DNA from: an uncultured Bacteroidales bacterium
GTDB lineage: Bacteria; Bacteroidota; Bacteroidia; Bacteroidales; P3
DNA length: 64,000 bases
Reading direction: 5' to 3'
NCBI GenBank assembly: GCA_900315335.1
Contig: OMYR01000018.1
Coordinates: forward strand, 3,516 to 67,515
Part shown: positions 1 to 56,380 of the stretch, piece by piece
Layout: every line of letters begins with the position of its first letter
Numbering within the stretch: the stretch's first letter is position 1
The notes under the pieces: generated by a model
The model's input: only the letters and a program-made list of their open reading frames with translations
Database searches by the model: none
What the model was told of the DNA's origin: nothing
Made by a program: the position numbers and the translations under genes

Positions 1-3000
1 TGTCTATTCCCCAAGACCAATATGACGTTCCTGTATAAACTTCCCTTAAAGCCAAAGTAACGGAACCTGCATTTTCCAATTGCTCGGAATAAGTGCTCAA
101 ATCAGTTTTGCAAAGAGTCCAAGTAGTTTGAGTCTTTGGCCAGGAAGCCAAAGCGACAAATGATGTAGGATCGTTCAAATCCGTTATATATCCCAATTCC
201 ATATCACCGCCATTAGGACCTTCCGATTTACCATAAAACTGAACTCTAAGTGTCGATAAATCGTTTGTGAATTGTGGCAATGATATTATTGAGTTTGGAG
301 TTGCTTCGTTAGATGTTATTTTAAGGGCTTTTGATCCTGAATGAATGAATTTGGATTCAGTTATAACTTTTATCGGATATGAAGAAGCTTCAGCCACAAC
401 TTCCCAACAATCTACACGTGCCAAATTGTTATATGATTCAAAATCTTGAACATAGTTGTTCTCTCCATCAATTGTGATTGCAGCACAAGGTGTCTTGAAT
501 TTTATTGTTTCGGAAATTTTTGTCGTTCCATCATCGCAAGTGTTCTTAACATACACCTCATATTCGGTACTTGCTTCCAAATCAGTTAGAGAAGCAGTCA
601 ATCCATCAGCAGTTGCTTCCGAATAATTCATATCCGAAGTTTTCTTGTAATAAACATTGAAATCGGTTTGAGAACCTGTTACTGTCCAAGAAAGAGTCGC
701 AGATTCTGCCGTAACATCTGTAATTTTCAAATTACGTGCCTTGTCGCAATCAGGAATCAAATCAACGGATACATCGTCAATATACCAAGCGGCGGAACTT
801 GCGTTGTCATGATTGAATACTATGTATATGTTTTCTCCGTCAATTGTTGCTTCTCCGAAATCAACAACTTCTTCAAAATAGTTGGTAGAAGGATATTGTG
901 TCGCAGATTTTTCCCAAACATAAACGATGTTCGCGGTGTCTGCCATATTCAAAGAATTTGTAAGACCAACTCTCATTCTACCATAAGAACTTGCATTACC
1001 CGTAGGTTTTGAATTGAATGTAAGTCTTAATGTGGTGATATCTTCCGTAAAGCGAGGAAGGGCGATTATGGTATTATCACCTGAATGGGTGTAGAAATAC
1101 ATGCTGTTTGCCCCTGTCTTCGAATTGTAACCGCTAATGGTAGGGTTATAAGAAGCGGTATTAAGTTTTGTCCAGCAATAGTACAAAGAAGTCGTATTCA
1201 AATCTTCAAACGAAGTTTCCCAAGGGATGTCCATTGCAACACAACGAGTGTGGAATAAAGCACTGATAGGATCTGTCAAACCTCCGTCTTCACATACTCC
1301 TGTAACGGATGCTACGTATGATGTATTGTCCGTTAAATTTTCAATGGCAAAGGTATTTTCAGTAACATTTGTTTCATTTATGATCACTTCATTCGTACCA
1401 TCTACAACCACTTTAACATTGTAGGAAGAAGCATCTCCGTTCCAAGTTATGTTTGCAGATGTTACATCAATATCGGAAACAACCAAACCATTAGGATCCG
1501 AACAAGACGGAGCCAATCCCACAGAAAGAGAATCTATATAGCAAGAAAGTTCCGAATAACCGGTATAACCAGGTTTGTTATGACGAAGTGCTATATATTT
1601 ATCAGTACTTTCATCGGCAACGATAGTTTCCGAGAAGTCAGCCATATTTATTTTAAGAAGATTCCAACTGCTGCCTACTTCCGATGCTGTGTAAGATTTC
1701 AATAACACGAATGAGGAAGTGTCAGTCAAATTTGTCAAATAACCTATTTGTAAATCTCCACAAGAATAAGAGGAACTTACTTTTGCATAGAAAGATAATC
1801 TTAGAGTTTCCAAATCGTTGGAGAATTTTGGAAGGGCATACATAGGTTGCGTAGTTCCATTTGCACCATAATCCTGGTAAGGAATGTACAGTCTGAATGA
1901 GTTGTTTCCCGATTTGGATTGACTGACAACACCACTGGTATAATAACTTGAAGAAACAGGAGTCATACTTGTCCAACAATCAGGAGTCGCTCCTACGATG
2001 TAAGTCTCAAAATCTTCAATATATTTGTCGTTATCCGTAATGGTAATTTCATCAGGACAGGCTGTCTTAAACTGAATAGGGTTGCTTGCTACATTTTCAG
2101 CACAAACAACTTCTACATATGCATCATATATGGTTGCAGGATTTAGATCCGTTAAGGTTATAGTAGGAGTACCGCTGACAGTTTGGGTTTGATATTCCGT
2201 TTCGGTTGTTTTTTTGTAATAAACCACCCAGGAAGTGTTCTCATCCGATTGTTGCCATGTAAGAGTTGCTGTCGTTGAAGTTATTGCGTCTGGTGTAGCA
2301 GCCAACTTCGTTGGTTTTGCACATTCAGGAATAATTTCCAATGTAACGTCGTCAATATACCATTGGTAATAATTGCCACCGCTTATGTATTTGATTGCGG
2401 GATAATAAACGGCATCGACGTCAGCAGTAAAATCTTCAAGTGTGTTGAAAGGAGTTATCATTTCATCATAAACCGAACTCGGCCAATCGGTAGCAAGATA
2501 TTCCTTAACGACAACGAATGTATTGGTATCCGTATTGTCTGTCATAAAACCGACTTGCATTTTGCCATAACTTGATGTAGTACCATTAGGTTTTGCCCAG
2601 GCAACAAGTTGCAATTCCGTGATATCTCCCTGATAACCGTTCAAAGTTATCATAAGGGTGCTTGAAGTACCATTTGAGAAATAAATATCCTTTGAACCTG
2701 TTCTTGCCGTATAGTCATAAACACTCGGATATGAGACCGAGCCGGATAGATAGGCAATAGGTGCGGACCAACAATTAGGCATAAGACCTTTCGTCTCATT
2801 TTCAAATCCGTTGTAATAAGGAAGATCGTCCATCGTTAAAGGAACACATTGTGTTTTGAAAGTAACTTTTTCGTTGGATGTTAAAACACTTTCTCCACAT
2901 ACAGAGGCAACTTTTACTTCATAATCAGTCCCCGAAGCCAAATCGTTCAGTGTATATGTGGTTTCATTTGCGGTTTCTTCCGTCCATTCCGTATCGGTAG

Positions 3001-5266
3001 TTTTCTTGTAAAAGACCGTCCATTCTGCTGCAATATCACCATATTGAGACCAAGTTACCTCAGCGGAATTTGTAGTTATTTCACTTACGGCAATATTGTT
3101 AGGTGCAGGACATTCCGGAACTTTATCCAAAACTATATCATCAATGTACCAAGCATATCCGTATGTTTTTGTAGGGTATTTGATAACAGGATAATAAACT
3201 ACACCGTCTTCCACTTCAAAATCCAAACCGGAGAATATAACGTCATATGGTTTATACTCCGTATTTGCCAATTGGGTGGCAACTATTGTCTTTGCTACAT
3301 GGAAAGAAGTTGTATCGTTCAAATCGGTCATAACACCTATCTCGATTTGTCCGTAAGATTGAGTAGTACCTCCCGGTTTAATGTAAGCGGACAATTGAAG
3401 ATCCTTTATATTTCCTTGGTAACCCGGTAATGCAACCATATTGCCATTGGATGTTGTGTTATAAAGTCTCATGCAATTATTTCCGTTGTGTGCTGAATAA
3501 TTTAAGACGTTTGGATAACTATCGTACGAGGTTTGGGCTTTTTCCAAGATTGTCCAGCAGGCAATGTTCATCAACGAATAATTCGCAGCCGTTTCGTTTT
3601 CAAAATCCATCTGATAAGGCAAAGTCGATTCAACAATTGCTTCACAAGGAGTCTTGAATGAAATCGTTGCAACATCCGTAGGTGTTCCGTCCGAACAGAA
3701 ACCTGCTATTGTAACGGTGTATGTCGTTAAAGTCGTAAGTTCCGTCAAATCATAATTTGTTTCCGTAATGTCGGTAAGTGAGGCAACCTCCGTATTGTTT
3801 TCATCTTTCACCGTAATGTTGAATGTAGCGGCTGTTGAAAGCCAACTCAAATTTGCACTTGTAGCCGTCAAGTTGCTTACGGTAAGGTCTGACGGTCCTT
3901 TGCAATCCGGAGTTATCATAACCTGTACACTATCTATATAGTAAAAATTATAGGAAGAAGTTACACCGGAATTTTGGCGTATCGCTATATAAGGAGTGCC
4001 TTCAACTTGCTGCAATTGTTCTGCATAATAATCCAAATCCGCAGTGTATTTTTTCCAAGTGCTTGAGGCTTCTATCGTTTTCAATGCAACAAAAGTGGAA
4101 GAGTCTTCCAAATCCGTTATGTAACCTATCTGCAAGGAGCCGGAATTAGCCGATTCGTATCGTGCATACAATGAAACTCTTAAAGTCGATAAATCATTTG
4201 TAAATTTTGGTAAAGCAATTATAGGTTTTTGGCAATTTGCTGAAGCATACATAGCAAGGGCTTTTGTCCCACCGTTTGCATATATTGATGCAACGTTTGA
4301 CGGATGATTATCGTCTTGCGAAACCATCGTTAAGCAGTTGGGAAAATCTGACACTTGATAAGATTCAAAATCTTCTACATATGTATTTTGTTCATCTATG
4401 GTCAGTTCATCCAAACATTGTGTGGTAAAAGTTCCCAAAATCCATTGACTTGTTCCATCGGTGCCGCAATTGGATCTCAGTTTGTATTTGTAATTCGTTC
4501 CCGGAAGTAGATCGGAAAGCGTAATCGAGTTTGTTTCGCTCGAGATGTTGTCATCATTCCAATCGGCAGTAACCAACTCGTATTCGAAATCATAACTGTC
4601 GGCAGAACCGGTGAAACTAAGTGTTCCGTTATCGGTAACGAACGAACTTACGATATCGGTAGGTGCCGGACAATCGACGTTAGGGATGAAGACATCATCA
4701 ACGTAAATTCCTATACCGTTATTATCCACTACGTGAAATGCAATATAAATGTTTTGCCCGTTATATTCCGACAAATCTATATCATACTTTTGGTAGGTGT
4801 CCGACAAATCAATCGCTTGGATTTGTGTGAAATTTGCCGTGTCGCTTGTTGATGTTGAAACTTCAATGTAGAGTTTGCTATCATCAGCGAAATTAATGTT
4901 CCCTAACTTAGCATAGAAAGACAATGTCATTCCGGTTTTGGCAGCAATCTGCGGAGTAATCAAAAAATTACTGCAACCGCTATAATCATAATCGTGTCGG
5001 GCACAGTAATACCCGGTATGATAATAGTAGGAATGAGCCGACCATTGGGAGGTCTTAGTACCTTTAATTTCCCAACCGTCAGGAGGAAAAGTGTTCTCAA
5101 ATCCTTCCTCCAAAGAGGTTATTTGAGAATATCCGCTTAATGAGAGCAACGTCATAAGCAGACAAAACATAGGAATAACTCCTTTACGTACAGCCCGCAC
5201 AAGGGATCGGATACAATCCGTCCGCCATCGGCTGGATCTCGTTTGAAGATCATGTGTTTTTTTCAT
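1..5266 (-). CDS. Giant modular secreted/cell-surface protein, first 1755 codons (3' end lies beyond the left window edge)
   Basis: Absent from the ORF track because there is no stop inside the window. The minus-strand frame from ATG 5266-5264 stays open to nt 1 in my hand translation. Both ends were checked codon by codon: MKKTHDLQTRSSRW...MFCLLMTLLSLSGYSQ (signal-like) at the start and ...TLALREVYTGTSYWSWGID at nt 58-2. A WYIDD(V/I)-type motif recurs at about nt 780, 1540, 2355, 3145, 3937 and 4700 (760-815 nt spacing). Each copy is followed by P(D/E)C and an Fn3-like segment (e.g. ATLTWQ, YEVYV). The + strand ORFs at 668-3657 are antisense to it. Confidence 0.8.
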   Translation of the reverse strand, partial: MKKTHDLQTRSSRWRTDCIRSLVRAVRKGVIPMFCLLMTLLSLSGYSQITSLEEGFENTFPPDGWEIKGTKTSQWSAHSYYYHTGYYCARHDYDYSGCSNFLITPQIAAKTGMTLSFYAKLGNINFADDSKLYIEVSTSTSDTANFTQIQAIDLSDTYQKYDIDLSEYNGQNIYIAFHVVDNNGIGIYVDDVFIPNVDCPAPTDIVSSFVTDNGTLSFTGSADSYDFEYELVTADWNDDNISSETNSITLSDLLPGTNYKYKLRSNCGTDGTSQWILGTFTTQCLDELTIDEQNTYVEDFESYQVSDFPNCLTMVSQDDNHPSNVASIYANGGTKALAMYASANCQKPIIALPKFTNDLSTLRVSLYARYESANSGSLQIGYITDLEDSSTFVALKTIEASSTWKKYTADLDYYAEQLQQVEGTPYIAIRQNSGVTSSYNFYYIDSVQVMITPDCKGPSDLTVSNLTATSANLSWLSTAATFNITVKDENNTEVASLTDITETNYDLTELTTLTTYTVTIAGFCSDGTPTDVATISFKTPCEAIVESTLPYQMDFENETAANYSLMNIACWTILEKAQTSYDSYPNVLNYSAHNGNNCMRLYNTTSNGNMVALPGYQGNIKDLQLSAYIKPGGTTQSYGQIEIGVMTDLNDTTSFHVAKTIVATQLANTEYKPYDVIFSGLDFEVEDGVVYYPVIKYPTKTYGYAWYIDDIVLDKVPECPAPNNIAVSEITTNSAEVTWSQYGDIAAEWTVFYKKTTDTEWTEETANETTYTLNDLASGTDYEVKVASVCGESVLTSNEKVTFKTQCVPLTMDDLPYYNGFENETKGLMPNCWSAPIAYLSGSVSYPSVYDYTARTGSKDIYFSNGTSSTLMITLNGYQGDITELQLVAWAKPNGTTSSYGKMQVGFMTDNTDTNTFVVVKEYLATDWPSSVYDEMITPFNTLEDFTADVDAVYYPAIKYISGGNYYQWYIDDVTLEIIPECAKPTKLAATPDAITSTTATLTWQQSDENTSWVVYYKKTTETEYQTQTVSGTPTITLTDLNPATIYDAYVEVVCAENVASNPIQFKTACPDEITITDNDKYIEDFETYIVGATPDCWTSMTPVSSSYYTSGVVSQSKSGNNSFRLYIPYQDYGANGTTQPMYALPKFSNDLETLRLSFYAKVSSSYSCGDLQIGYLTNLTDTSSFVLLKSYTASEVGSSWNLLKINMADFSETIVADESTDKYIALRHNKPGYTGYSELSCYIDSLSVGLAPSCSDPNGLVVSDIDVTSANITWNGDASSYNVKVVVDGTNEVIINETNVTENTFAIENLTDNTSYVASVTGVCEDGGLTDPISALFHTRCVAMDIPWETSFEDLNTTSLYYCWTKLNTASYNPTISGYNSKTGANSMYFYTHSGDNTIIALPRFTEDITTLRLTFNSKPTGNASSYGRMRVGLTNSLNMADTANIVYVWEKSATQYPSTNYFEEVVDFGEATIDGENIYIVFNHDNASSAAWYIDDVSVDLIPDCDKARNLKITDVTAESATLSWTVTGSQTDFNVYYKKTSDMNYSEATADGLTASLTDLEASTEYEVYVKNTCDDGTTKISETIKFKTPCAAITIDGENNYVQDFESYNNLARVDCWEVVAEASSYPIKVITESKFIHSGSKALKITSNEATPNSIISLPQFTNDLSTLRVQFYGKSEGPNGGDMELGYITDLNDPTSFVALASWPKTQTTWTLCKTDLSTYSEQLENAGSVTLALREVYTGTSYWSWGID

Positions 5267-5532
5267 TTTAGTAAAATTTTATGTTCAACAATAAATTATT
5301 TGCAATATCCATTCGCAAAACAAATCGCAAAGATACATATTTTCTCAAATATAAAAACGAAAATTTTATTTTTATATTGCAGTTCTTGTTAAATATTCGG
5401 TGATAATGGATGTTATCGGTTGATTGTTTTATTGAAAAATTTCTTTTTATTGCAATCGAATTTTTTTTGATGACACATATTTATTCTTTCGAAATATCAA
5501 AATAAAAAATCATAGGTAATATCGGTTTATTG

Positions 5533-5596
5533 GTGTTAAATATTATTTTGGTAATGTTTAATACTATTTCAACGATGTTTAATACTATTTCAGATA
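5533..5596. repeat. 21-bp-phased repeat array, locus A (3 units)
   Basis: Units are GTGTTAAATATTATTTTGGTAA / TGTTTAATACTATTTCAACGA / TGTTTAATACTATTTCAGATA. Units 2 and 3 start at 5555 and 5576, exactly 21 nt apart. Lies upstream of the giant gene and downstream of pcm. Confidence 0.75.
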
Positions 5597-5654
5597 AAAG
5601 TAGAAATAGTTTGTTCGATATTTATGTCAAGTCGGCAATGAAAACAAAGGCTTT

Positions 5655-6299
5655 TTATTGTTGCTTGTCTTTAAGCATGGGGACGAACTTGAAATTACCG
5701 AAAGTTTCTTTTTTTAATTCGGTTTCCGATATTTTGGTTAGTCTGTACATAGTCTGCGATTCGTCGCCTACGGGAATGACCATGATACCGCCGATTTTCA
5801 ACTGGCTAACCAAGTCTTGCGGAATGAAAGGTGCTCCGCAAGTAACTATAATCTTGTCGAAAGGAGCAAATTGCGGCAATCCTTTGTAACCGTCGCCATA
5901 AAAACATAGCGGATGTATATTCAATTCATCGAAAAGTTTTTGGGCTGACGTGTATAAAGGCTTTTGCCTCTCGATAGTATAAACCCTTGAAGACAATTTG
6001 TACAAAACAGCAGTTTGATAACCGCTGCCCGTGCCGATTTCAAGGATTTTTTCTCTGTTTTTGACTTCCAAAAGTTGGGTTTGAAAAGCGACTGTCGAGG
6101 GTTGAGATATGGTTTGGTCGCAAAGTATTCCTATCGCTCTGTCTTCATAAGCGAGCATTTCCAAAGACCTATCCATAAACAAATGTCGTGGTATCTTGCC
6201 CATAACGTCCAAAACTTTTTGGTCGGTTATACCTTTTGTTATAAGCGTTTCTACCATTTTTTTTCTCATTCCTTGCATCAAGGTCGTTTCTTGTATCAT
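5655..6299 (-). CDS. pcm: Protein-L-isoaspartate O-methyltransferase
   Basis: 214 aa. SAM-binding motif ILEIGTGSGYQTAVL, plus TISQPSTVA and the GGIMVIPVG C-terminal motif typical of PCMT. Confidence 0.9.
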   Translation of the reverse strand: MIQETTLMQGMRKKMVETLITKGITDQKVLDVMGKIPRHLFMDRSLEMLAYEDRAIGILCDQTISQPSTVAFQTQLLEVKNREKILEIGTGSGYQTAVLYKLSSRVYTIERQKPLYTSAQKLFDELNIHPLCFYGDGYKGLPQFAPFDKIIVTCGAPFIPQDLVSQLKIGGIMVIPVGDESQTMYRLTKISETELKKETFGNFKFVPMLKDKQQ

Positions 6300-6870: not shown

Positions 6871-6938
6871 GATATTAGTGTTTAATACTATTTTGCCAAT
6901 CAAAGAAAAGAAAAAATTAGTTTCACTAACTATTTTTT
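6871..6938. repeat. 21-bp-phased repeat array, locus B
   Basis: Contains GATATTAGTGTTTAATACTATTTTGCC ... AAAAAATTAGTTTCACTAACTATTTTTT. These are the same words (TTAGTGTTTAA, TTAGTTTCACTAA) as at the other loci. Confidence 0.65.
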
Positions 6939-10531: not shown

Positions 10532-13500
10532 ATGAAAGCGAAATTACATATATTTTATTTACTGATAATCCTTGCAACGACTGTTTTTTCGCAAGAAAGA
10601 AAGGTATATATCAAAGAATTTGAAGAGTTTAATCTCGTCCCCATTCTTGCGAACAATCAAACATTTTACACTATTGATTTAGGGAAAGATTTTCGTAATT
10701 CAAATTCAGTAGCCCAGGCCCAATTGCCATTGGAAAATTCATTGGTTACTTATGAGCTTGATAGCGATATTCAAGTTAATGTTATTGTATTGGAAAAAGA
10801 TACAATCAAGATAAAAGACAATATATTGATTTATCCTATCCAAAAATCCAAAATAAAAATCGATACAACATATTCCTTTGTCATTGACAAGAAATATTAC
10901 ACTACCGATGCTTTTCAAGGAGAAAATCTCGTCAAAGTTGATAAAATCGGAGTTATGCGTAACCAAAACGTTGCGGTGGTATCAATCTCGCCATTAAGAT
11001 ATAACCCCGTAAAAAATTTGATTGAAAGGGTAAAAAAACTGCAAGTTGAAATCGTTTCTGTTAAAGATACTTCTTCGGCAGAAGCACATAAAAAAAACCT
11101 TTCTGCCACAGTTTCTCAAACAAATGCTAATTTACCATTGAAATTGGCTATTGTTACCAATGAAGCGTTTAAGGGAAATTTAGCACCTTTTGTAAAATGG
11201 AAAACAATGCAAGGTTTTGAAGTCTTGGAACTATATACCTCTCAAATAGGTAGCGATACGACTCAAATCCGTTCATATCTAAAAAATCTATACACATCAT
11301 CTACGCCTCTGAATACCCCGATAGATTATCTGTTGATTGTTGGCGACACGAACATTGTGCCAACCTTTAAGGGAAAATATAGAATAGAAAATTACCCTGC
11401 ACATTACACTGATTTATATTATGCAGAATACACAGGGGATATACTTCCCGATGCTTTCTATGGCAGAATCTCTATTTCGGATACTCAAACGTTGAACGCT
11501 GTTATTGATAAGACTATAAAATATGAGCAATATCTTTTGGGAGATACGTCATATTTGAATAGTTCGTTATTGGTTGCCGGCAAGGAAGGCTCGGACAATG
11601 CTCCGACTATGACAAACGGACAAAACAATTATCTGAAACATTATTTCCAATCACTAACCGATACAAACGTATATTACAATCCTACAAGTGCTGATAATTC
11701 CCATAAACCGCTTATATACGAAAAACTTTCTTTGGGTAATTCTTTTGTTAGTTATACGGGACACGGCAGTTTTATGGGTTGGCAAAATCCGCCATATAGA
11801 GTAAAGGACGTTGATACTTTGCTAAACAATGTCGGCAAATATGGAATTTTTGTAAATAATTGTTGTCATACGGGGCAGTATGATATGCCTGTTTGTTTTA
11901 CGGAAAGTCTTTTGCAAGCAAAAGATAAAGGCGGAGTGGCGTGTATAGGTTCTTCGGATTACACTCTATGGGACGAGGATTACTATTGGGCAGTCGGCTA
12001 TAAGGATATATCATTGAATCCACAATATGATGCAACCAAATTGGGAATGTATGATAGATTGTTTCACACCCATAATGAAATATTTTTGCAGCGTTATATT
12101 ACTTCTGCTCAAATGGTTCAGAGTGGCAACTTGGCAGTTACTCAGTCTTTGTCGCCATATTACAAGCATTATTGGGAAATGTATAATTTGCAAGGAGACC
12201 CCACTCTTATGCCGTATATAGGAATTCCGAAAACCTTTGAACGGAATTTTCCCGACACATTAATTGTCGGCAAAAAAAATTTAAGTTTCGTGGCAGAGCC
12301 ATATACATATGTGGCTTTGAGTGATGATAACGGTTTGATAACATCTGTTCAAGCCGATTCGCTTGGTGATGTCGATATTGATTTGACTGATATAACCGAA
12401 GCCAAAACGGTAAAAATCGTGCTGACCAATCAATTCTATTGTCCTTTGATTGATTCCATTGTTTTTACGTCCCCGAAAAATGCGTTCGTTGTTTTGAAAA
12501 ACATAAAAATCAAAGATAAAACGACAAATCAAGAAGTGGAAAATCTTTTGCAAGGCGAGCAATATATAGTGGATATTGATGTTACAAATGTGGGTTTAGC
12601 TGATTTGAATGGCGAAAATAATTACATAAAAATAATCACTGATACTGTTTTACTGATGTTAAACACTAATTCATCAGTGTTAAACACTAATTTACCAATT
12701 ACTCACATTAATTCTTTGGAAACACTTCATTTTTCAGACGCATTTGAATTTACTGTAAAAGGTGGGGTTAAAAACTTTTCGTTGGCAGATATTACTTTCG
12801 AGATTTATCAAAATGGAGAAAAAACCAATGAGAAAAAAACAGCGAAAGAAGTATTTGCTCCTCAATTATCCATAAACTCCGCTTCGATGAGTAGAAAAGA
12901 TAATGCTATCTCGCTAAAACTTTTGCTGCAAAACATAGGCAGGCAACCGTCTTCGCAAGGCAGCATCGAGATTGGTGATTTGTCAAGCAATATAAGTGTT
13001 GTTGATTTTATAAATCCAATCAAGTCTTTGGGCGTAAATGAAAAGGATACTGTGAATTTTCAAATTATGTTAACGGATACCACTCAAAGCGGAATTTCGT
13101 TTGATGTGAATTACACGGCAGGAGATTACAATGTTTTGAAATCATTTGATATTGATTTGAAACCAAAGATTGAGGGTTTTGAAAATGGTTTTACTTCATT
13201 GGATTGGCAAAATGATGAAACGAATGCGTGGGTTATAGATTCCACAACATCTTTTAGTGGAAAATATAGTGCAAGGAGCAAAGTGAATTTGGCACACAAC
13301 AAGCGTTCAAGACTTAATTTGAATGTGAATAACGCCGTGTCTTCGACTATTTCATTCTATGCTATGGTGTCAAGTGAAAAGGATTATGACAAATTAGTGG
13401 TCTATTTGGATAATGAGCCTATGTTTGATTTGAGTTTCGGGTATAATGATTTGGGATTGCTTGAAGGCTGGAAGCAATATAGTTTTCCTGTTTCCGACGG

Positions 13501-13867
13501 CAGCCATACGGTCAGTTTTTCTTATGAAAAAGATCAGTCCAACTCTTATGGTGAGGATTGTGCAAGGATTGATAATGTTGTGTTAAGTGTTTGTTCGGAT
13601 TCTGTTGTATTCGGTTTTGACGATTTGATGCAAAGCAATATTGATATGTTCCCAAATCCTGCTGCAAAGACGATAAATTTGAATAATCTGCCACAACATA
13701 ATACCGTAACCATAATAGACAATAACGCAAGGGCGGTTTATTGTGATGATAACATAGGGGAGAGTAAGCAAATAGATATTTCGTTTTTGGAAAACGGAGT
13801 TTATTATGTTGTAATTACCAATCGAAACATTGTTGTGGATAGACGAAAACTTATTGTTGCAAAATAA
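10532..13867 (+). CDS. Peptidase C25 (gingipain/PorU-like) family protein with T9SS C-terminal sorting domain
   Basis: 1111 aa with a signal peptide. Candidate His/Cys dyad contexts are SYTGHGSFMGW and IFVNNCCHTGQYD. A MAM/lectin-like module is present (EGFENGFTSLDWQNDETNAWVIDS...YEKDQS...ARIDNVVL). The C-terminus ISFLENGVYYVVITNRNIVVDRRKLIVAK is a type-A CTD. The ORF contains repeat locus C in frame. Confidence 0.75.
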   Translation: MKAKLHIFYLLIILATTVFSQERKVYIKEFEEFNLVPILANNQTFYTIDLGKDFRNSNSVAQAQLPLENSLVTYELDSDIQVNVIVLEKDTIKIKDNILIYPIQKSKIKIDTTYSFVIDKKYYTTDAFQGENLVKVDKIGVMRNQNVAVVSISPLRYNPVKNLIERVKKLQVEIVSVKDTSSAEAHKKNLSATVSQTNANLPLKLAIVTNEAFKGNLAPFVKWKTMQGFEVLELYTSQIGSDTTQIRSYLKNLYTSSTPLNTPIDYLLIVGDTNIVPTFKGKYRIENYPAHYTDLYYAEYTGDILPDAFYGRISISDTQTLNAVIDKTIKYEQYLLGDTSYLNSSLLVAGKEGSDNAPTMTNGQNNYLKHYFQSLTDTNVYYNPTSADNSHKPLIYEKLSLGNSFVSYTGHGSFMGWQNPPYRVKDVDTLLNNVGKYGIFVNNCCHTGQYDMPVCFTESLLQAKDKGGVACIGSSDYTLWDEDYYWAVGYKDISLNPQYDATKLGMYDRLFHTHNEIFLQRYITSAQMVQSGNLAVTQSLSPYYKHYWEMYNLQGDPTLMPYIGIPKTFERNFPDTLIVGKKNLSFVAEPYTYVALSDDNGLITSVQADSLGDVDIDLTDITEAKTVKIVLTNQFYCPLIDSIVFTSPKNAFVVLKNIKIKDKTTNQEVENLLQGEQYIVDIDVTNVGLADLNGENNYIKIITDTVLLMLNTNSSVLNTNLPITHINSLETLHFSDAFEFTVKGGVKNFSLADITFEIYQNGEKTNEKKTAKEVFAPQLSINSASMSRKDNAISLKLLLQNIGRQPSSQGSIEIGDLSSNISVVDFINPIKSLGVNEKDTVNFQIMLTDTTQSGISFDVNYTAGDYNVLKSFDIDLKPKIEGFENGFTSLDWQNDETNAWVIDSTTSFSGKYSARSKVNLAHNKRSRLNLNVNNAVSSTISFYAMVSSEKDYDKLVVYLDNEPMFDLSFGYNDLGLLEGWKQYSFPVSDGSHTVSFSYEKDQSNSYGEDCARIDNVVLSVCSDSVVFGFDDLMQSNIDMFPNPAAKTINLNNLPQHNTVTIIDNNARAVYCDDNIGESKQIDISFLENGVYYVVITNRNIVVDRRKLIVAK
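12637..12714. repeat. 21-bp-phased repeat array, locus C (inside the C25 peptidase CDS, in frame)
   Basis: Sequence CACTGATACTGTTTTACTGATGTTAAACACTAATTCATCAGTGTTAAACACTAATTTACCAATTACTCACATTAATTC, translated TDTVLLMLNTNSSVLNTNLPITHINS. Closely matches the reverse complement of intergenic locus D (CTGATGTTTAACACTATTTTATTAATCACTCACATTAAT). Confidence 0.7.
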
Positions 13868-14815: not shown

Positions 14816-15805
14816 ATGGCTAAAAGTGCGAAGAATATACTGATTTCCCAAAACGCTCCGGCGGAAAAGGAGCGATCTCAGTATAAGTTATTGGCGGAAA
14901 AATACAATCTTAACCTTACATTTAACAAATTCTTTGAAGTTGTAAGAATCAGTAATAAGGAATTTAGGGCGCAAAGAATTAATCTTTTGGATTATCCTGC
15001 CGTGATAATGACAAGTAAAATGGCTGTGGATAATTACTTTCATTTTGCAGAGCAGATGCGTTTGGTTATTCCCGATGAAATGAAATTCTTTTGCATAACA
15101 GACTCCATTGCCAATTATCTACAAAACTATATTCAGTATCGTAAGCGTAAAATATTTTATGGTAAATTGACTTTTGACGAGTTAATACCTGTTATGTTGA
15201 AGCATAAAGAGGATAAATATTTATTCCCTTGTGCTGAGGACGCTTCGGCAATTAATTTCAAGAAATTGGAAGCGGCTAATATTAATTACACGAAGATTGT
15301 GATGCACCGCTCAGAGCCGAAAGATTTGTCAAAGATAGATATTAAGAAATATGATATGGTTGTTGTGTTTTCACCTATCGGCGTAAAATCGTTCGTAACC
15401 AATTTCCCAAACACTACTTCCGACGATGTGATGTTTGCAGCCTTTGGCAAGCCTACCCAAAAGGCTCTTCAAAAATATAAATTGAAAGTAACCGTTGCGG
15501 CACCTACGGTGAAAAGTCCTTCGATGATAATGGCGTTGGATCATTTCTTTGAAGAGACAGCACAAGCCAAAACTTCAAAGAAAGCAATGGAAACAAAAGA
15601 TGACGAGACTAAAGTCGCAACAGCAGTAAAGAAAACAACCAAAACTACTGCCGCTAAAACAACAACTACAACCGCTAAGAAAACTGCCTCTGCGACTAAG
15701 ACCACTATTTCAAAAGCCACATCGACAACCACAAAACCTAAGACGAGTTCAACAACCAAAACTGCGACAACCAAGACAGCAAAAGCAAAGAAAGCGGATC
15801 AATAA
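14816..15805 (+). CDS. Uroporphyrinogen-III synthase (HemD)-like protein with Thr/Lys/Ala-rich C-terminal tail
   Basis: 329 aa. The first 250 aa or so have a HemD-like two-lobe pattern (VIMTSKMAVDNYF, VVVFSPIGVKSF). The last 70 aa or so are TKVATAVKKTTKTTAAKTTTTTAKKTASATKTT...KTAKAKKADQ. Confidence 0.6.
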   Translation: MAKSAKNILISQNAPAEKERSQYKLLAEKYNLNLTFNKFFEVVRISNKEFRAQRINLLDYPAVIMTSKMAVDNYFHFAEQMRLVIPDEMKFFCITDSIANYLQNYIQYRKRKIFYGKLTFDELIPVMLKHKEDKYLFPCAEDASAINFKKLEAANINYTKIVMHRSEPKDLSKIDIKKYDMVVVFSPIGVKSFVTNFPNTTSDDVMFAAFGKPTQKALQKYKLKVTVAAPTVKSPSMIMALDHFFEETAQAKTSKKAMETKDDETKVATAVKKTTKTTAAKTTTTTAKKTASATKTTISKATSTTTKPKTSSTTKTATTKTAKAKKADQ

Positions 15806-17499: not shown

Positions 17500-17583
17500 A
17501 TTAAAAAATTAGTGTTTGACATTAAAAAATTAATGTGAGTGATTAATAAAATAGTGTTAAACATCAGTTTTGCGATAAGTGAT
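17500..17583. repeat. 21-bp-phased repeat array, locus D (4 exact-phase units)
   Basis: Units are ATTAAAAAATTAGTGTTTGAC / ATTAAAAAATTAATGTGAGTG / ATTAATAAAATAGTGTTAAAC / ATCAGTTTTGCGATAAGTGAT, starting at 17500, 17521, 17542 and 17563. Confidence 0.8.
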
Positions 17584-17619: not shown

Positions 17620-17662
17620 AACGTCCGTCAAAAAGTTTTTTTTCGGCGGACGTTTTGTTTTT
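17620..17662. terminator. Bidirectional hairpin terminator between convergent genes
   Basis: Stem AACGTCCG (17620-17627) / CGGACGTT (17647-17654), flanked by an A-run and a T-run. Lies between the LD-carboxypeptidase (+) and flavodiiron (-) gene ends. Confidence 0.65.
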
Positions 17663-20195: not shown

Positions 20196-20268
20196 ATAAA
20201 ATTAGTCTCAGTAATTGTAAAAATAGTTTCACTAACTAAAAAATTAGTTTCACTAATCAATTAACTGA
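20196..20268. repeat. 21-bp-phased repeat array, locus E
   Basis: Sequence AAATTAGTCTCAGTAATTGTAA / AAATAGTTTCACTAACTAAA / AAATTAGTTTCACTAATCAA. Unit starts at 20199, 20221 and 20241. Confidence 0.75.
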
Positions 20269-20350: not shown

Positions 20351-21022
20351 TCATCTTGCCTTATCGCGATTTTCATTTTCCTTTCTCAAATCATCAAGTA
20401 TTTTGCCTTTATACGAAAAATATTTTGCTCCTTGATAGGCTCCGGATGTATTCTGGATATCTTCTGGCATAAATGTTCCAACGAAAGGCGACAACTTATA
20501 TATACGACCTTCATATTCGATGGTATCGTCCGATGCTACTTTTACGATTATACCGGTAGGAATGAAAGTAATGTCTTTTCCGATTTTTATGCCGCACATA
20601 CTGAATTTGAAGCGAGATCGCTTAACTTCTCGTTTAATGCTGACAGGTTTTGCGTTGTCAATAGGTTTATTTTCATGGTATAAAATAACTTCTGCATCAT
20701 CAACAGTCGTTGCAATATCGCGAAAAATATCAAGAGCCACTTGTGGAGCGACATTAAAAAATTCGCGATTTTGTCGAATACGCAAGTCTGTTAAACGGTC
20801 TATTGTCTTATGTACTAATTTTTCGACCTCGTTATATTTGCAAGTTTTCATAGTCGCAAGTATCTCAAAAGGTAAAGGTACTGCAGTATTGTCAAGTTCC
20901 TTGGACCTAATATCTACGGGGCGAGAACTTTTGCCAATCTTTACCCAATCCTCTTTGAAACTTGGATTGGTAAGTATATACACATATCCTTTCTCCACGA
21001 CTTTTGCTATTATTTTGGACAA
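20351..21022 (-). CDS. GIY-YIG / T5orf172-type domain protein
   Basis: 223 aa. N-terminal GYVYILTNPSFKEDWVKIGKS ... REFF matches the T5orf172 (GIY-YIG-like) pattern. The C-terminal half is uncharacterised. Confidence 0.6.
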   Translation of the reverse strand: MSKIIAKVVEKGYVYILTNPSFKEDWVKIGKSSRPVDIRSKELDNTAVPLPFEILATMKTCKYNEVEKLVHKTIDRLTDLRIRQNREFFNVAPQVALDIFRDIATTVDDAEVILYHENKPIDNAKPVSIKREVKRSRFKFSMCGIKIGKDITFIPTGIIVKVASDDTIEYEGRIYKLSPFVGTFMPEDIQNTSGAYQGAKYFSYKGKILDDLRKENENRDKAR

Positions 21023-21103: not shown

Positions 21104-21823
21104 TTAGTGTTTAACTATTAATTTCTTTGTTACCAAAGGTCTTCCGTCAGCAGTGATAGAGTAGAAATAAACTCCATTAACTAAATCTGAAACGTTTAAT
21201 GAAACTTTGCTTGCGCTACCAACTTTCAAATTAACTTCCTTAACTGTTGAACCCAAAGAGTTTCTTACAACCAATTTTGCATTTCTGAAATTTGCAGGAA
21301 TTGAATACGCAACATTCGTTGCAGACATTGCAGGATTAGGCTGTGCATTCAAAGAAAGTTTTACGTTTTTGCTGTTTTGGGAAGTCAATGAACTTTGAAC
21401 TTGATAAATAACGTTCAATGTTTTGAGTACTTCGTTTGTGTTGTGGTCAATGAATTTCACAACAACTGTTGAAGTTACGCCATTGGCATATAGATATTGT
21501 AAATCAAATCCCTCATAAGTTTCCTCCGGATCAATCAATACAGGTGTAGAAACAGTTTCCGTCATACATGTTCCATTAAAACACATCATAACGTCATTAC
21601 CCTCAGAAACGCCTGACTTATCCATTTCGACGCGGAAATTCAATTCGGTATTGGCTTTATTCTGAATATGAATGTAATCTATTCTCATCGGCTGATCCAT
21701 ATCCAATGTAATTGCAAGTTCATTACCCTCAATAACATCATCGTGATACAATAAATCAATGCTTTGGGCACTTGCCATAAAGATGCCTAACACGGCAACC
21801 AAAAACAAATAAATTTTTTTCAT
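21104..21823 (-). CDS. Secreted protein with T9SS C-terminal sorting domain
   Basis: 239 aa. Signal peptide MKKIYLFLVAVLGIFMASAQ. C-terminus VSDLVNGVYFYSITADGRPLVTKKLIVKH is a type-A CTD. Confidence 0.7.
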   Translation of the reverse strand: MKKIYLFLVAVLGIFMASAQSIDLLYHDDVIEGNELAITLDMDQPMRIDYIHIQNKANTELNFRVEMDKSGVSEGNDVMMCFNGTCMTETVSTPVLIDPEETYEGFDLQYLYANGVTSTVVVKFIDHNTNEVLKTLNVIYQVQSSLTSQNSKNVKLSLNAQPNPAMSATNVAYSIPANFRNAKLVVRNSLGSTVKEVNLKVGSASKVSLNVSDLVNGVYFYSITADGRPLVTKKLIVKH

Positions 21824-26193: not shown

Positions 26194-26278
26194 CAAGTGT
26201 TATCAGTTTTTTAGTGTTAATGATTATTGTCGTGATGTGAGAGATTAATTTTTTAGTGTTAAACACTATTTTGATAAA
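26194..26278. repeat. 21-bp-phased repeat array, locus F
   Basis: TTAGTGTTAATGATTATTGTCGTGATGTGAGAGATTAATTTTTTAGTGTTAAACACTATTTTGATAAA. The two TTAGTGTT words start at 26211 and 26253, which is 42 nt or 2 x 21. Confidence 0.75.
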
Positions 26279-26317: not shown

Positions 26318-27973
26318 TTATGCAAATACAGACGTAAATTCAAATGACTTCGCATCAAACAAACCCTTATCGCTGAGTTTTATTTCGGGGATTACCAAAA
26401 GAGCCATAAACGCCATAGTCATAAACGGTGCATTCATCTTGCAGCCCAATGATTTGGCAAAATTATTCAGGCTTTCATACTTGCTTGAAACAACATCTAT
26501 TGTTTCGTTACTCATAAGTCCTGCAATAGGTAGTGGTAGAGTTTCTGTTTTTTCTCCATTTGTAATACATATACCACCTTTGTTTGCAACGAGTTGGTTG
26601 ATAACTTTAACAATAAGTTCATCGCTTGTTCCAACGGCAATTATGTTGTGGGAATCGTGGGCTATCGTAGAAGCCATTGCACCATTCTTTAATCCGAAAC
26701 CATTAATGAATGCAACGGCAGGCTTTGTATTATTGTACCTGTTACATACCACCAATTTCAAGATATCGTTCTTTGTATCGGATACTACAAAATTATCTTG
26801 GATTTTAGCATTACAAACAATGCTTTCTGTATATAATTCCTTGTCTTTGGCTTTAATTACTTTGATTGCAGATGTTTGAGCAATTAATTTAATATCTGTT
26901 TCAGTGATTTCGCTTCTGTTGAAATTGTTAATAATATTTGTATTATCGCTAAGTAAATCGTTGCAAACAAGATTATTATTTGTCTTATCAAAGACTTGTT
27001 TGCCCGAAATGAAAGTAGATTGTATTTCAAAGTATTTTAGATTATTTACAACGATAAAGTCTGCTTGGTCGTCTTTTCTCAGTATTCCGATTGGTAGTTT
27101 GTAATGTGAGATAGGATTTAACGAGCTTGTTTGCAGTATGTTGAATAAAGACAATCCTTTTTCCATACTTCGCTTTACGAGTGTATCAATATAAGAATTT
27201 TGAAGTTCGTTCGGGTGAATGTCATCACTGCAAAACATAGTCATTGTAGGGTATTTGTCAATCAGTTGCCATAGATTATCAAAGTTTTTTGCAGCACTGC
27301 CTTCACGAATCAAGCACTTTATTCCATATTTTATTTTAGTCTCCGCTTCAACGTATGAAGAACTTTCATGGTCAGTGGAAATACCTGCAAGCGAGTATGC
27401 TAAAATATCTTTGTCCTCTAACATCGGAGCATGGCCGTCAATAGGTTTTCCGACTTGTTTGGCGTATTCGATTTTCCTTAGCACTTCCTCGTTTTTGTTC
27501 AATACACCAGGAAAATTCATCATCTCTGCAAGAGCGTATATCTCCTTTTTCTCCAACAATTGTTTGACGTCTTGGCTGTTCAAGGTGTAGCCCGAAGTCT
27601 CGAAATTCGTTGCCGGAACGCAAGAAGGAGCCGTGAAAGCAAAATGAAAACACGATTGTTTGCTGTTTTCAATCATAAAATTTATTCCTTGCGTACCACA
27701 CACGTTTGCTATCTCGTGAGGATCGCATACAGCACCTACAATACCGTGGCGTACAGCTTCTTTTGCATATTGAGGGGGCAATAGCATTGAACTTTCAATA
27801 TGAACATGGGAATCAATCAAGCCGGGAAGAATATATGGTGCGTTGCTATCAATGTCGGGTATTGGAATAATATCCTCAATCTTACCATTCTTAACGTACA
27901 ACTCTCCATCTATAAGTGTTTTGTCTGCAACGGATAAGATATGTCCTTTTATTACGAAATTATTGTTTAACAT
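26318..27973 (-). CDS. ade: Adenine deaminase
   Basis: Amidohydrolase motif GLIDSHVHIESS, then CDPHEIANV and DGHAP. Start moved to ATG 27973 (MLNNNFVIKGHIL). The 21 extra codons in the ORF track are read-through of repeat locus G. Confidence 0.85.
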   Translation of the reverse strand: MLNNNFVIKGHILSVADKTLIDGELYVKNGKIEDIIPIPDIDSNAPYILPGLIDSHVHIESSMLLPPQYAKEAVRHGIVGAVCDPHEIANVCGTQGINFMIENSKQSCFHFAFTAPSCVPATNFETSGYTLNSQDVKQLLEKKEIYALAEMMNFPGVLNKNEEVLRKIEYAKQVGKPIDGHAPMLEDKDILAYSLAGISTDHESSSYVEAETKIKYGIKCLIREGSAAKNFDNLWQLIDKYPTMTMFCSDDIHPNELQNSYIDTLVKRSMEKGLSLFNILQTSSLNPISHYKLPIGILRKDDQADFIVVNNLKYFEIQSTFISGKQVFDKTNNNLVCNDLLSDNTNIINNFNRSEITETDIKLIAQTSAIKVIKAKDKELYTESIVCNAKIQDNFVVSDTKNDILKLVVCNRYNNTKPAVAFINGFGLKNGAMASTIAHDSHNIIAVGTSDELIVKVINQLVANKGGICITNGEKTETLPLPIAGLMSNETIDVVSSKYESLNNFAKSLGCKMNAPFMTMAFMALLVIPEIKLSDKGLFDAKSFEFTSVFA

Positions 27974-27977
27974 TATT

Positions 27978-28061
27978 AAAATAGTTATGGAGATTAATTT
28001 ATTAGTGTCCATAACTATTTTAATAACTATGGACACTAATTTTTCAGTTATTGAGATTATT
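27978..28061. repeat. 21-bp-phased repeat array, locus G (4 exact units, palindromic pair)
   Basis: Units are AAAATAGTTATGGAGATTAAT / TTATTAGTGTCCATAACTATT / TTAATAACTATGGACACTAAT / TTTTCAGTTATTGAGATTATT. Units 2 and 3 form ATTAGTGTCCATA...TATGGACACTAAT, with perfect 13-bp arms. Confidence 0.8.
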
Positions 28062-28915
28062 TATAGGAATGCAGCATTCATTCCAGATTTCTTTAACGGC
28101 ACGCAAATCACAGGTACTTTTGCATAGCGGACAACATCTTGGGCTCTTGGGTCAGCGGCAAAATCCGTAGTAATATCCCTACCCATAACGATGCACATAT
28201 CCACACCGTTCGCCTCATTATTCATAAATTTTATTGATTCATCGGCGAAATCCTTACTTTGTGCAAGCATAGGCATCTTCACAACATTGCATTCCACACC
28301 TTTTGAAAGTATGAAATTTTCTGCTTTTGAGGCCGTGTATTCCAAATGTAATTTTTGGTCGCTTTCTATTCCGTCCCAAGAGCCGATTAATATCGTGATT
28401 TTTGCTCCATATTCTTTTGCCAATTTTATTGCAGTTGGAACTTTTTGTCTTGAAGAAAGATTTAATTCAAGAGGCAAAAGAATATTTCTTATAGGTTTCG
28501 GCTCAATATTGACAGCAACCGTCATCAAAGGTATTTCAGCCGTGCGAATAAGTTTATGAGTGTTCGCTCCAATTGTATTCAAACCGGTATTGGAAGTACC
28601 AACGACAAGCAAATCAATCTTATTTTCTCTTATGAAATTATTAATCTCGCCCGTGATACGTCCTCTGCGAATGTAGGCTGTAACATCCAATCCGTACAGA
28701 GTTTTGATATTTTTCTGCAATTCGGAGAAATGCAGCCTTTGAACATCTTCCGAAACTTCTTGTTGTCCCAAAAGTTTGCCGAAAAAACCAACCTCTTCAC
28801 TGACGTGTAACAATGAATAATTGGTATCAGAATCTTTGAATAAGAATTTACAGAATTTCAAACAAGCATTTAAACTTAAATCGTTGAAATCTGTCGTTAT
28901 CAAAATATTTCTCAT
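28061..28915 (-). CDS. Tandem universal stress protein (UspA) domain protein
   Basis: 284 aa in two halves of about 140 aa. Each half ends in a USP-like nucleotide-binding segment (LLVVGTSNTG...IGANTHKLIR; MCIVMGRD...VVRYAKVPVICV). Confidence 0.65.
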   Translation of the reverse strand: MRNILITTDFNDLSLNACLKFCKFLFKDSDTNYSLLHVSEEVGFFGKLLGQQEVSEDVQRLHFSELQKNIKTLYGLDVTAYIRRGRITGEINNFIRENKIDLLVVGTSNTGLNTIGANTHKLIRTAEIPLMTVAVNIEPKPIRNILLPLELNLSSRQKVPTAIKLAKEYGAKITILIGSWDGIESDQKLHLEYTASKAENFILSKGVECNVVKMPMLAQSKDFADESIKFMNNEANGVDMCIVMGRDITTDFAADPRAQDVVRYAKVPVICVPLKKSGMNAAFL

Positions 28916-38365: not shown

Positions 38366-38382
38366 ATAGTATGTGATACTGC

Positions 38383-38470
38383 AAAATTAGTGTTAAGCAT
38401 TATCAAATTAGTGTTAAACATTGGTAAAATAATATTAAACATCAGTAAAACGATTAGTGGTACCGTGATT
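38383..38470. repeat. 21-bp-phased repeat array, locus I
   Basis: Units AATTAGTGTTAAGCATTATCA / AATTAGTGTTAAACATTGGTA / AAATAATATTAAACATCAGTA / AAACGATTAGTGGTACCGTGA. ATTAGTG words start at 38386 and 38407. Confidence 0.8.
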
Positions 38471-43244: not shown

Positions 43245-43335
43245 ATAATGTTTAACACTAAAAAATTAATCTCTCACATTAATAAATTAGTGTTAAACAT
43301 TAAAAAATTAGTTTCTCATACTGTAAAACCGATTA
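43245..43335. repeat. 21-bp-phased repeat array, locus J (clearest palindromic words)
   Basis: Units AATAATGTTTAACACTAAAAA / ATTAATCTCTCACATTAATAA / ATTAGTGTTAAACATTAAAAA / ATTAGTTTCTCATACTGTAAA, starting at 43245, 43266, 43287 and 43308. Confidence 0.8.
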
Positions 43336-45965: not shown

Positions 45966-46088
45966 ATTTGAATTTGTGTCGTTCCGCACTGCCATTAATA
46001 TATAATGATGTACTTCTTTCGTCCCATTGTCTTTAATTTTTATTTGAAACACCCCATTTTTTATCCGCTACACGCCACTTAGAGTTTC

Positions 46089-46295
46089 AAATACGCAGGT
46101 TTGTGTTCCAAACACGGTAGTTCTCGTTCCAAACACGGAGGTTCGTGATGTATATAGTACTATATAGCGACTATATATAGTACTATATAGTAACCGTATA
46201 TAGTACTATCTGCGTCACGAATCTCCGTGTTTGGAACGAAAACCTGCGTGTTTGGAACGAGAACTACCGTGTTTGGAATATAAACCTGCGTATTT
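46089..46295. repeat. 207-bp composite inverted-repeat element (iteron arms plus three central palindromes)
   Basis: The left arm AAATACGCAGGTTTGTGTTCCAAACACGGTAGTTCTCGTTCCAAACACGGAGGTTCGTGATG matches the reverse complement of the right arm, except that the right arm carries one extra unit of about 21 nt (GCAGGTTTTCGTTCCAAACAC). The centre holds TATATAGTACTATATA at 46151 and 46174 plus a partial copy at 46197 (23-nt period). Confidence 0.85.
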
Positions 46296-52390: not shown

Positions 52391-52497
52391 AAAAATAATT
52401 TCAATAACCAATAAAATAATCTCAATGATTAGTAAATTAGTTTCATTAATCATTTTGCTGATGTTTAACACTAATTTTGCAATAACACTTATTAATT
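52391..52497. repeat. 21-bp-phased repeat array, locus K (divergent queA/ackA intergenic region)
   Basis: Units AAAATAATCTCAATGATTAGT / AAATTAGTTTCATTAATCATT / TTGCTGATGTTTAACACTAAT / TTTGCAATAACACTTATTAAT. Confidence 0.75.
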
Positions 52498-56335: not shown

Positions 56336-56380
56336 TGATTGGTTAAATTAAATAGTGATTAGTTAAATCACATAATGCTT
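56316..56380. repeat. Repeat-family-like array, locus L (overlaps the aspS stop codon)
   Basis: CATTGGTTAAACCC / GATTGGTTAAATTA / GATTAGTTAAATCA, with units starting at about 56316, 56337 and 56357 (21 and 20 nt apart). A weaker member of the family. Confidence 0.45.

Follow-up and report, generated by a model that had tools for sequence, protein, structure and literature searches.

Arrays of palindromic words in a 21-bp frame, dispersed along the genome of a rumen Bacteroidales bacterium

Short tandem arrays of imperfect palindromes, repeating about every 21 bp, recur along a stretch of 64,000 nucleotides from an uncultured Bacteroidales bacterium of the Genome Taxonomy Database (GTDB) family P3 (assembly GCA_900315335.1, contig OMYR01000018.1, positions 3,516 to 67,515); this whole stretch is called the window below. 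The original prediction, made from the letters alone, had listed 12 such loci. We wondered whether these arrays form a genuine family, how they differ between strains and species, and whether they matter as DNA, as RNA or only as repeats that spread. The 21-bp-phased arrays are real and are confirmed here. They constitute a family for which no published description was found, and they belong to a known class, that of palindromic repeats dispersed between genes. Unusual within this class are the strict phasing at two helical turns, a lineage-wide frame in which the words are replaced, and length-neutral embedding in coding sequences.

Periodicity was scored as self-match at a given offset, with a threshold of at least 28 matches in 42, for periods 6-44. 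In the window, ten loci were found at period 21 versus none or one at other periods. Apart from its harmonic 42, period 21 is unique in the range scanned, so the strict period of about 21 bp originally proposed is borne out. Tandem Repeats Finder gives independent evidence of period 21 at 17500, 20191, 43241 and 52386, and 225 kb of the same species contain 50 loci at period 21 versus 0-2 at other periods. Word A (TTAGTGTTWAACACTAA, up to 3 mismatches) has 12 matches in the window where 0.46 are expected, a number that none of 100 shuffles reaches. Word C (TTAATGTGAGAGATTAA) has 3 versus 0.7 expected, and word B (AATTAGTTTCACTAA) 12 versus 6.5, a count that is weak when taken alone. Copies of word B lie on the plus strand in 9 of 9 cases, yet they come from five loci only, and GC skew tracks gene strand. 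As a separate observation, period 21 is also the commonest long period in 594 kb of viral contigs used as control (L007-L070; 19 loci versus at most 11 at other long periods), where the loci are probably coding heptad repeats or operators.

The gene content of the window is that of a Bacteroidota bearing a type IX secretion system (T9SS), and contigs near-identical to it originate from cattle rumen metagenomes. The near-identical strains L001-L006 have an identity of more than 99.8% and are thus uninformative for comparison. Scanning 185,579 species genomes for AAATTAGTGTTWAACAYTAA retrieved 41 stretches, 30 of them in the metagenome-assembled genome (MAG) "Bacteroidales bacterium Phil12". The other 11 are lone chance words, none in arrays, and Phil12 is the sole genome of this set with the word in arrays. 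Since the window matches one Phil12 locus with 96.4% identity over 8 kb and a second with 93-95% over 18 kb, the two are assigned to one species by sequence identity. GTDB genus Phil12 corresponds to Candidatus Scybalousia, family P3, of mammalian guts (PMC8957277). Our Phil12 sample comprises 29 loci, and the family sample consists of these and the window, so that roughly 10% of the species genome (~290-300 kb) is covered. A scan of the JGI metagenome collection, from which the species itself is absent, gave only 32 chance singletons. Viral contigs yielded 64 isolated chance words and zero arrays, and on this basis a phage origin of the family was rejected.

A unit consists of a 17-bp imperfect palindrome, TTAGTGT-NNN-ACACTAA, and a 4-nt run of A or T (consensus AAAATTAGTGTTAAACACTAA), with TTAGT/ACTAA as conserved end motif. 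About 55 arrays with about 198 units were collected from roughly 290 kb. The three centre bases are free, TAA/TTA being present in 82 of the 198 units, GAG/CTC in 33 and CCC/GGG in 7. The spacer is either NAAA, which lengthens the next word, or TTTN, which lengthens the previous one. Since the ideal site is a 23-bp palindrome, AAATTAGTGTTWAACACTAATTT, a 21-bp frame has no room for both flanks and each unit carries only one. Units are oriented, the asymmetry of the centre (TTAAA or TTTAA) going with the spacer type. The pentamers are separated by seven bases in type A (TTAGT-N7-ACTAA) and by three in type B (TTAGT-N3-ACTAA): in word B (AATTAGT-NNN-ACTAATT) they are 4 bp closer than in word A, and the longer A-runs of this type restore period 21. 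Arrays usually have 3-5 units (mode 4, maximum 6), and solo words are rare (1 of 12 in the window). Most arrays are arranged head-to-tail, some with inverted pairs (43245, 27957). The geometry described earlier, with palindromic words, A/T runs and a common vocabulary in both orientations, is thus correct. TTAGT/ACTAA pentamers repeat every 10.5 bp on average and would therefore lie on one helix face, in agreement with the one-sided placement that had been put forward.

All 12 predicted loci are present where they had been placed, with units as described. The list stands with reservations: 6871 is two words around a 21-mer that does not belong to the family, 56316 is weak, 32498 is ambiguous, and a solo word at 21104 had been missed. 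The loci of the window are as follows.

5533-5596: array of three A-type units spaced by T-runs, downstream of the stop codon of a minus-strand PCMT-like gene (5655-6299).
6871-6938: A word (6875-6891) and, 42 bp from it, perfect B word (6915-6929), flanked by minus-strand genes on both sides.
12637-12714: in-frame array (A, A, C-type) inside a plus-strand C25-peptidase/T9SS gene (10532-13867), encoding LMLNTNS SVLNTNL PITHINS.
17500-17583: array A, C, A with A-run spacers, 49 bp past the stop of an S66 LD-carboxypeptidase gene, flanked by convergent genes, with a GC-rich hairpin terminator (~17620-17660) downstream.
20196-20268: array of three B-type units, starting 3 bp past the stop of a GT4 glycosyltransferase gene.
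21104-21120: solo A-like word with 3 mismatches at the 3' end of a Por_Secre_tail gene, the only non-array word in the window.
26194-26278: array of four units (A-like, A-like, C, A) spaced by T-runs; both flanking genes lie on the minus strand, and the stop of an adenine-deaminase-like gene is 40 bp away.
27957-28061: array of five units with inverted pair TTAGTGTCCATAACTA / TAACTATGGACACTAA, abutting the stop of a minus-strand gene (28061-28915); as RNA a long hairpin (z = -6.5).
32498-32565: B-like stretch in 21-nt phase inside the 3' part of minus-strand kdtA (32417-33628); membership ambiguous because kdtA is colinear with 30 homologues.
38362-38470: array of four to five units after a gene for an FAD-dependent protein, a terminal TGTGATA-type unit over the stop codon being followed by A, A and A'.
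43245-43335: array A, C (reversed), A, B/C-like, 23 bp past a stop codon and ~65 bp upstream of the TAnnTTTG -7 box of pyrH; units 1 and 3 are reverse complements (RNA hairpin z = -6.9).
52391-52497: array of five units, three B-like with A spacers followed by two A-like with T spacers, between the divergently oriented queA and ackA.
56316-56380: weak array of period 20-21, overlapping the aspS stop codon and followed by a GC-rich terminator hairpin.

To the right of 56.98 kb no arrays are found, as had been noted. This higher-GC segment (up to 47-48% GC) opens with an IS4-type transposase gene (DDE_Tnp_1 + DUF4372; 57004-58173, minus strand), which marks the start of the array-free part and truncates a murG-like open reading frame (ORF; 56749-57012).

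No leader, tail or terminal inverted repeat (TIR) was detected around the arrays, and flank-versus-flank BLAST gave only degenerate edge units within ~40 bp, with no longer shared flank homology and no target duplications. The best identity between arrays is 85-92% over 48-80 bp, and near-identical recent copies were not found among the arrays compared. Neighbouring units agree with each other at 11.1 of 17 positions, more than units taken from different arrays (9.0). There is no multicopy ORF in ~300 kb, annotated loci contain neither transposase genes adjoining arrays nor cas genes, and the genes called over ~60 kb of annotated loci include no PF01797 protein (Y1/HUH, RAYT). Rfam and tRNA scans of the window gave tRNA-Glu as sole match. 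By sequence, the family is neither a repetitive extragenic palindrome (REP) or bacterial interspersed mosaic element (BIME), nor a Correia or enterobacterial repetitive intergenic consensus (ERIC) element, nor a clustered regularly interspaced short palindromic repeat (CRISPR), as originally stated: it has no GTAG/CGTC tag, no spacers, no Rfam match and no match to BrickBuilt, a repeat of Porphyromonas gingivalis discussed below.

Further, we examined the position of arrays relative to genes. About 47 of 55 arrays (~85%) are intergenic (P ~1e-24 versus a coding fraction of at least 79%), and 10 of the 30 intergenic gaps of the window hold an array. Their median distance to stop codons is ~20-50 bp, some arrays overlapping the stop, and ~100-200 bp to start codons. 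Flanking genes are in tandem in 27 cases, convergent in 10 and divergent in 7. Arrays 17500 and 56316 are probably transcribed, because they lie between a stop codon and a GC-rich terminator. Loci of the window are on average 4.6 kb apart, close to the predicted density of about one per 5 kb, and two intragenic loci fill two stretches that are otherwise array-free for ~10 kb. Orientation relative to transcription (16:9; 30:18 units; 13:6 arrays) is in no case significant; it leans to an A-run before the hairpin in the sense direction, the reverse of an intrinsic terminator. Scans for sigma-70 promoters, with a model ill-suited to Bacteroidota, and for terminators revealed no enrichment over shuffles; canonical terminators number 17 versus 12.4 and 19 versus 13.3 expected, likewise no enrichment. 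Tandem promoters of the Bacteroidetes -33/-7 type were rejected as an explanation, since the distance from TTTG to TTTG would be ~27 bp, not 21, and few units match TAnnTTTG.

Comparison with Phil12 reveals changes by whole units. Array 20196 has three units in the window and two in Phil12, a clean 21-bp indel. Unit 1 of array 17500 is A-type in the window and C-type in Phil12, with 7 clustered changes, its flanks being 95% identical. Similarly, array 5533 has a C-type unit as unit 2 in Phil12, at the same site and in the same register. At 38383, 43245 and 6871 both place and unit number are kept, the last locus differing by 3 substitutions. Between the strains, arrays diverge by 5.2%, other intergenic DNA by 6.9% and coding sequences by 4.6%. 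Changes in half-sites are mostly G-to-A and C-to-T, and the two halves change independently. Array 5533 lies at the right boundary of a strain-variable block (3640-5646; L117 3052-5114) that is non-homologous between the two strains of this species; its left flank (595-3640) encodes a giant fn3/T9SS protein, with an identity of only 80% between them.

In related genomes, which the original prediction had proposed to compare, period 21 is kept, the words are unrelated and one array occupies an orthologous site. The relative L122, whose C25 peptidase is 50% identical, has four intergenic period-21 arrays of GATAATATTCAAATATTCTTT-type units, one of which, with 7 units, comes right after the S66 peptidase stop and is orthologous to array 17500 of the window. 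L120 (57% identical) has period-21 arrays of TTTTCAGAAAA palindromes, and L124 (41% identical) has arrays of other words at 21, 22 and 23 bp. Syntenic loci of L125 and L126 contain no arrays, nor do L112 and L114, relatives chosen by FprA; since synteny is lost, FprA serves poorly as a marker in this case. No lineage shares its words with another, and those of L122 are barely self-complementary.

A coding repeat unrelated to the array family occurs in the same region. The Lys/Thr/Ala-rich C-terminal tail of HEM4 (uroporphyrinogen-III synthase; window 15635-15707) has 15/21/24-nt periodicity, is also present in L117 (15106-15231), L120 (15028-15168) and L122 (15034-15250), and varies in length by strain and species.

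Arrays inside genes were compared with homologous proteins, as in a test for Rickettsia palindromic elements (RPEs). The C25 peptidase is longer by exactly 7 amino acids at its array than 18 homologues, through a 21-nt duplication of one A unit. In Phil12, AroA (EPSP synthase) contains three in-phase A words encoding ETVFNTN GAMFNIN ETVFNTK and is ~5 amino acids longer than solved homologues. The length of two other enzymes is unchanged: CoaX (type III pantothenate kinase), with a perfect 23-bp A palindrome and two more units, is colinear with the Thermotoga maritima enzyme, and KdtA shows no indel relative to 30 homologues. A-type in-gene arrays (C25, AroA, CoaX, L092) all use the sole open frame, xxx-GTG-TTW-AAC-ACT-AAT, which is present on both strands because the word is symmetric. 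The C-terminal tail of PBP2 is also read from an array, in a different frame from these. Family words that stand in place of native codons with length kept point to overwriting akin to conversion or to selection for the motif as DNA, because length-neutral replacement is hard to achieve by simple insertion. In two homologues of the C25 peptidase (P0125, P0129; around residue 700) the same segment is natively heptad-repetitive (FSEKNLL FSEKNFF FSEKDFG; VSEEDLV VSEEDFF), encoded by DNA unrelated to the intergenic word of each species.

What, then, are the arrays for? Tentatively, and aware that it may well prove wrong, we favour a role at the level of DNA, with REP/BIME-like arrays presenting one-face sites to a lineage-specific DNA-binding or DNA-processing protein. 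We infer both the protein binding and a usefulness of the arrays beyond mere tolerance. Arrays of 3-5 units about every 5 kb, mostly past stop codons, would serve as cooperative one-face platforms for a species-specific protein. The family would be renewed by whole units, through gain or loss of 21 bp and swap of one word type for another; words and protein would co-evolve and diverge between related species, with the 21-bp frame retained. Cooperative dimers or hexamers use 17-18-bp palindromes at a centre spacing of 21-24 bp, ARG boxes and lambda operators being examples. This role is favoured because the frame stays the same in different word types and species, because arrays of narrow size range are the unit, because arrays within enzymes are length-neutral and loci evenly spaced, and because no constraint of RNA type is seen. 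Binding sites for a dimeric protein, as originally suggested, stay plausible and are indirectly favoured by the missing covariation, the constant period, the length-neutral coding arrays and the even spacing. That arrays diverge no more between strains than other intergenic DNA was also counted in its favour.

Several points weigh against such a role. The two words could not be bound by one and the same rigid dimer, because the pentamers of B are closer. Species-specific words with unit swaps and indels fit a selfish repeat equally. The greater likeness of adjacent units means that local duplication contributes to the period, and the two turns are not absolute, given the 22- and 23-bp arrays of L124 and the 23-nt repeat of BrickBuilt. 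Arrays occur in all four gene-pair contexts, seven of them in divergent promoter regions, and show no link to gene class. The even spacing of the 12 loci (coefficient of variation 0.48 versus ~0.9 under three null models, uniform and intergenic-restricted; P ~0.006) comes from a post hoc test on one window with n = 12, two weak loci included, and is a lead rather than a result. Unlikely, in our opinion, is the bolder proposal that family P3 shares a genome-structuring system, where a fast-evolving DNA-binding or DNA-writing protein would maintain hundreds of two-turn phase-locked arrays at fairly regular distances of ~5 kb, imposed length-neutrally on coding sequence where intergenic space is lacking, with words and protein co-evolving between species in a fixed 21-bp frame.

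Two genes deserve mention in connection with a cognate protein. A T5orf172/MUG113 gene (predicted DNA-binding or GIY-YIG-like; 20351-21022, minus strand) lies between array 20196 and the solo word at 21104. As the cognate protein it was rejected: it adjoins one array, but no paralogues and no other association were seen. In species L120, ftsZ directly follows the glycosyltransferase gene, without T5orf172 gene and without array. The other, from Phil12 (L090 636-1364), encodes a Cro/C1-type HTH_3 protein of 242 amino acids, whose linker (residues 76-121; heptads xxxETN/DTNL) is read from the longest array, of 6 units. It may be a coincidence or a candidate cognate protein.

[quoted passage not shown] We consider this explanation conceivable but on balance doubtful. 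A transposase, or ectopic conversion together with slippage, would have spread the repeat, which would then be tolerated at 3' ends and, in one open frame, within tolerant protein segments, and be subject to mutational decay. Restriction of the words to one species among the genomes scanned, the 21-bp indel and whole-unit swaps between strains, the independent and mainly G-to-A and C-to-T decay of half-sites, the likeness of neighbouring units and the array at the edge of a strain-variable block all fit this explanation well. In-frame coding copies (C25 with its 7 additional residues, the HTH_3 protein, the PBP2 tail) are reminiscent of Rickettsia RPEs, and a Bacteroidales precedent exists in BrickBuilt, a species-specific 23-nt minisatellite MITE (PMC4596501). 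However, TIRs, leader or tail, target duplications and long flank homology are missing, as are a multicopy ORF, a transposase beside the arrays and near-identical recent copies. A spreading minisatellite would also have to account for the narrow array size without long expansions, for the CoaX and KdtA arrays, whose length neutrality is unlike simple insertion, for a period that stays constant while words and internal geometry change, and for the even spacing.

Decidedly improbable is action of the arrays as RNA, in the form of tandem hairpins in 3' untranslated regions that stabilise mRNA ends or terminate transcription, functions proposed for REP and BOX elements. It would agree with the location of arrays just past stop codons, nearer to stops than to starts, with the probable transcription of 17500 and 56316, with the good folding of some arrays (z = -3.9, -6.5 and -6.9) and with the lack of enrichment of canonical terminators. 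Yet fold z-scores range from +0.5 to -6.9, and for half of the arrays folding is no better than that of shuffled sequences. Compensatory covariation is absent, the most variable symmetric pair behaving independently (GC 31, GT 21, AC 19, AT 11), and the sense strand has no excess of G:U over A:C (27 G:T versus 22 A:C mismatches). Selection at the RNA level is thus not supported, given the lack of covariation, G:U bias and significant orientation and the mixed fold scores. The seven arrays between divergent genes, a strict 21-nt phase that has no RNA rationale, an A-run that tends to precede the hairpin, opposite to a hairpin with U-tract, and the barely self-complementary words of L122 point in the same direction. 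Least probable of all, and very unlikely in our view, is intrinsically curved DNA, that is, phased A-tracts acting without a specific protein as supercoil or promoter-upstream elements. A/T-rich blocks (AAAATTA, TTAAA) do alternate every 10-11 bp in the unit, the modelled curvature of an idealised array is greatest at period 21 (68 degrees versus 30-45 at periods 19 and 23-26), and real arrays rank at the 89th-99th percentile by position, the weak 56316 at the 64th. But in a wedge model with Bolshoy-Trifonov angles, arrays show no excess over equally AT-rich 84-bp windows (35.1 versus 33.2 degrees, P = 0.18), and the 25 sites of the window with the strongest curvature include none of them, so the intrinsic curvature suggested originally is not supported. 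Curvature would also leave conserved words and species specificity unexplained.

How does the family relate to known systems? It shares much with REPs and BIMEs: short imperfect palindromes (17 bp, or 23 bp with flanks, against 20-40 bp and hundreds of copies for REPs), an extragenic location at 3' ends of genes or operons, mosaic clusters of several types in both orientations, sequences peculiar to the species, occasional copies within genes and vertical persistence at orthologous positions. The REP palindrome carries a conserved GTAG or CGTC tetranucleotide at one end (PMC3733652), a tag that this family does not have. Moreover, the units described here are head-to-tail at a strict 21 bp with weak AT-rich stems, whereas REPs form inverted pairs 20-100 bp apart (the REPIN doublet), and no gene for a REP-associated tyrosine transposase (RAYT) was seen in the ~10% of the genome covered. 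To our knowledge, REP/RAYT systems are essentially undescribed in Bacteroidales.

BrickBuilt of P. gingivalis is a 23-nt minisatellite within an IS5-type MITE, with 19 copies per genome, 1-23 repeats, and leader plus tail of up to ~300 nt with IS5-like TIRs (PMC4596501). Like the present family, it has a Bacteroidales host, is species-specific and consists of imperfect direct repeats in tandem, each about two helical turns long, without spacers; it is strictly intergenic, and its copy number differs between strains. Our arrays differ in having 3-6 palindromic units without leader, tail or TIR, no sequence similarity, and a density that extrapolates to hundreds of arrays.

RPEs are comparable as palindromic repeats translated in frame within coding genes, housekeeping genes included. 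They are single elements of 100-150 bp that add residues, in contrast to 21-bp phased arrays that leave CoaX and KdtA unlengthened. Operator arrays (ARG boxes of 18 bp, 21 bp apart; lambda OR1-3 of 17 bp, 23-24 bp apart) are likewise AT-rich imperfect palindromes with an uncontacted centre, in groups of two to three or more, their centres about two helical turns apart, which puts the dimers on one helix face. The analogy is functional only: operators occupy few promoters, our family hundreds of loci, most of them at the 3' ends of genes, and it has several word types with different half-site spacing. Neisserial intergenic mosaic elements (NIME) with dRS3 and pneumococcal BOX elements are also species-specific modular intergenic mosaics of variable unit number, but their units measure 45-150 bp, are bounded by boxA/boxC or dRS3 and have no 21-bp phasing. 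Unlike CRISPRs, the arrays have contiguous units with 4-nt A/T spacers, 3-6 of them at many loci, and unlike plasmid or phage iterons and operators they are found at 12 loci among housekeeping genes over 57 kb, not confined to the origin or a regulatory region of a mobile replicon.

A different structure with period-21 repeats was rejected as an array of the family. Between C69 peptidase and flavodoxin genes (46084-46295; palindrome from 46085) lies a near-perfect palindrome of ~205 nt with a DNA fold of -79.7 kcal/mol (z = -14.5). Each of its arms has three 21-bp units (GTTCCAAACACGGNGGTTCNC), and its centre consists of TATATAGTACTATATA palindromes with a 23-bp period; the unit core GTGTT..AACAC resembles word A. 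The same architecture is present in an unrelated genome, a Bacteroidales with 49% GC (GCA_965316055; L113 11302-11664), downstream of an FprA gene, with inverted 21-bp arrays (TCGTTTT... / ...AAAACGA) around four 22-bp AATTGACAGTCAATT palindromes.

As far as we know, dispersed palindromic repeats such as REP/BIME and REPINs are understood almost only in Proteobacteria, and the single described Bacteroidales analogue is a low-copy MITE. Here, about a third of intergenic regions is occupied in an abundant uncultured bacterium of rumen and hindgut. Species-specific words and unit-number polymorphisms offer strain-typing markers for metagenomes, in which the arrays probably also cause breaks in the assembly. 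Should a cognate protein exist, the family would make the co-evolution of a protein with its DNA sites tractable, and could mark the organisation of chromosome domains in Bacteroidota. Were the genome-structuring reading true, the arrays would represent a new kind of chromosome-organising or domain-boundary element.

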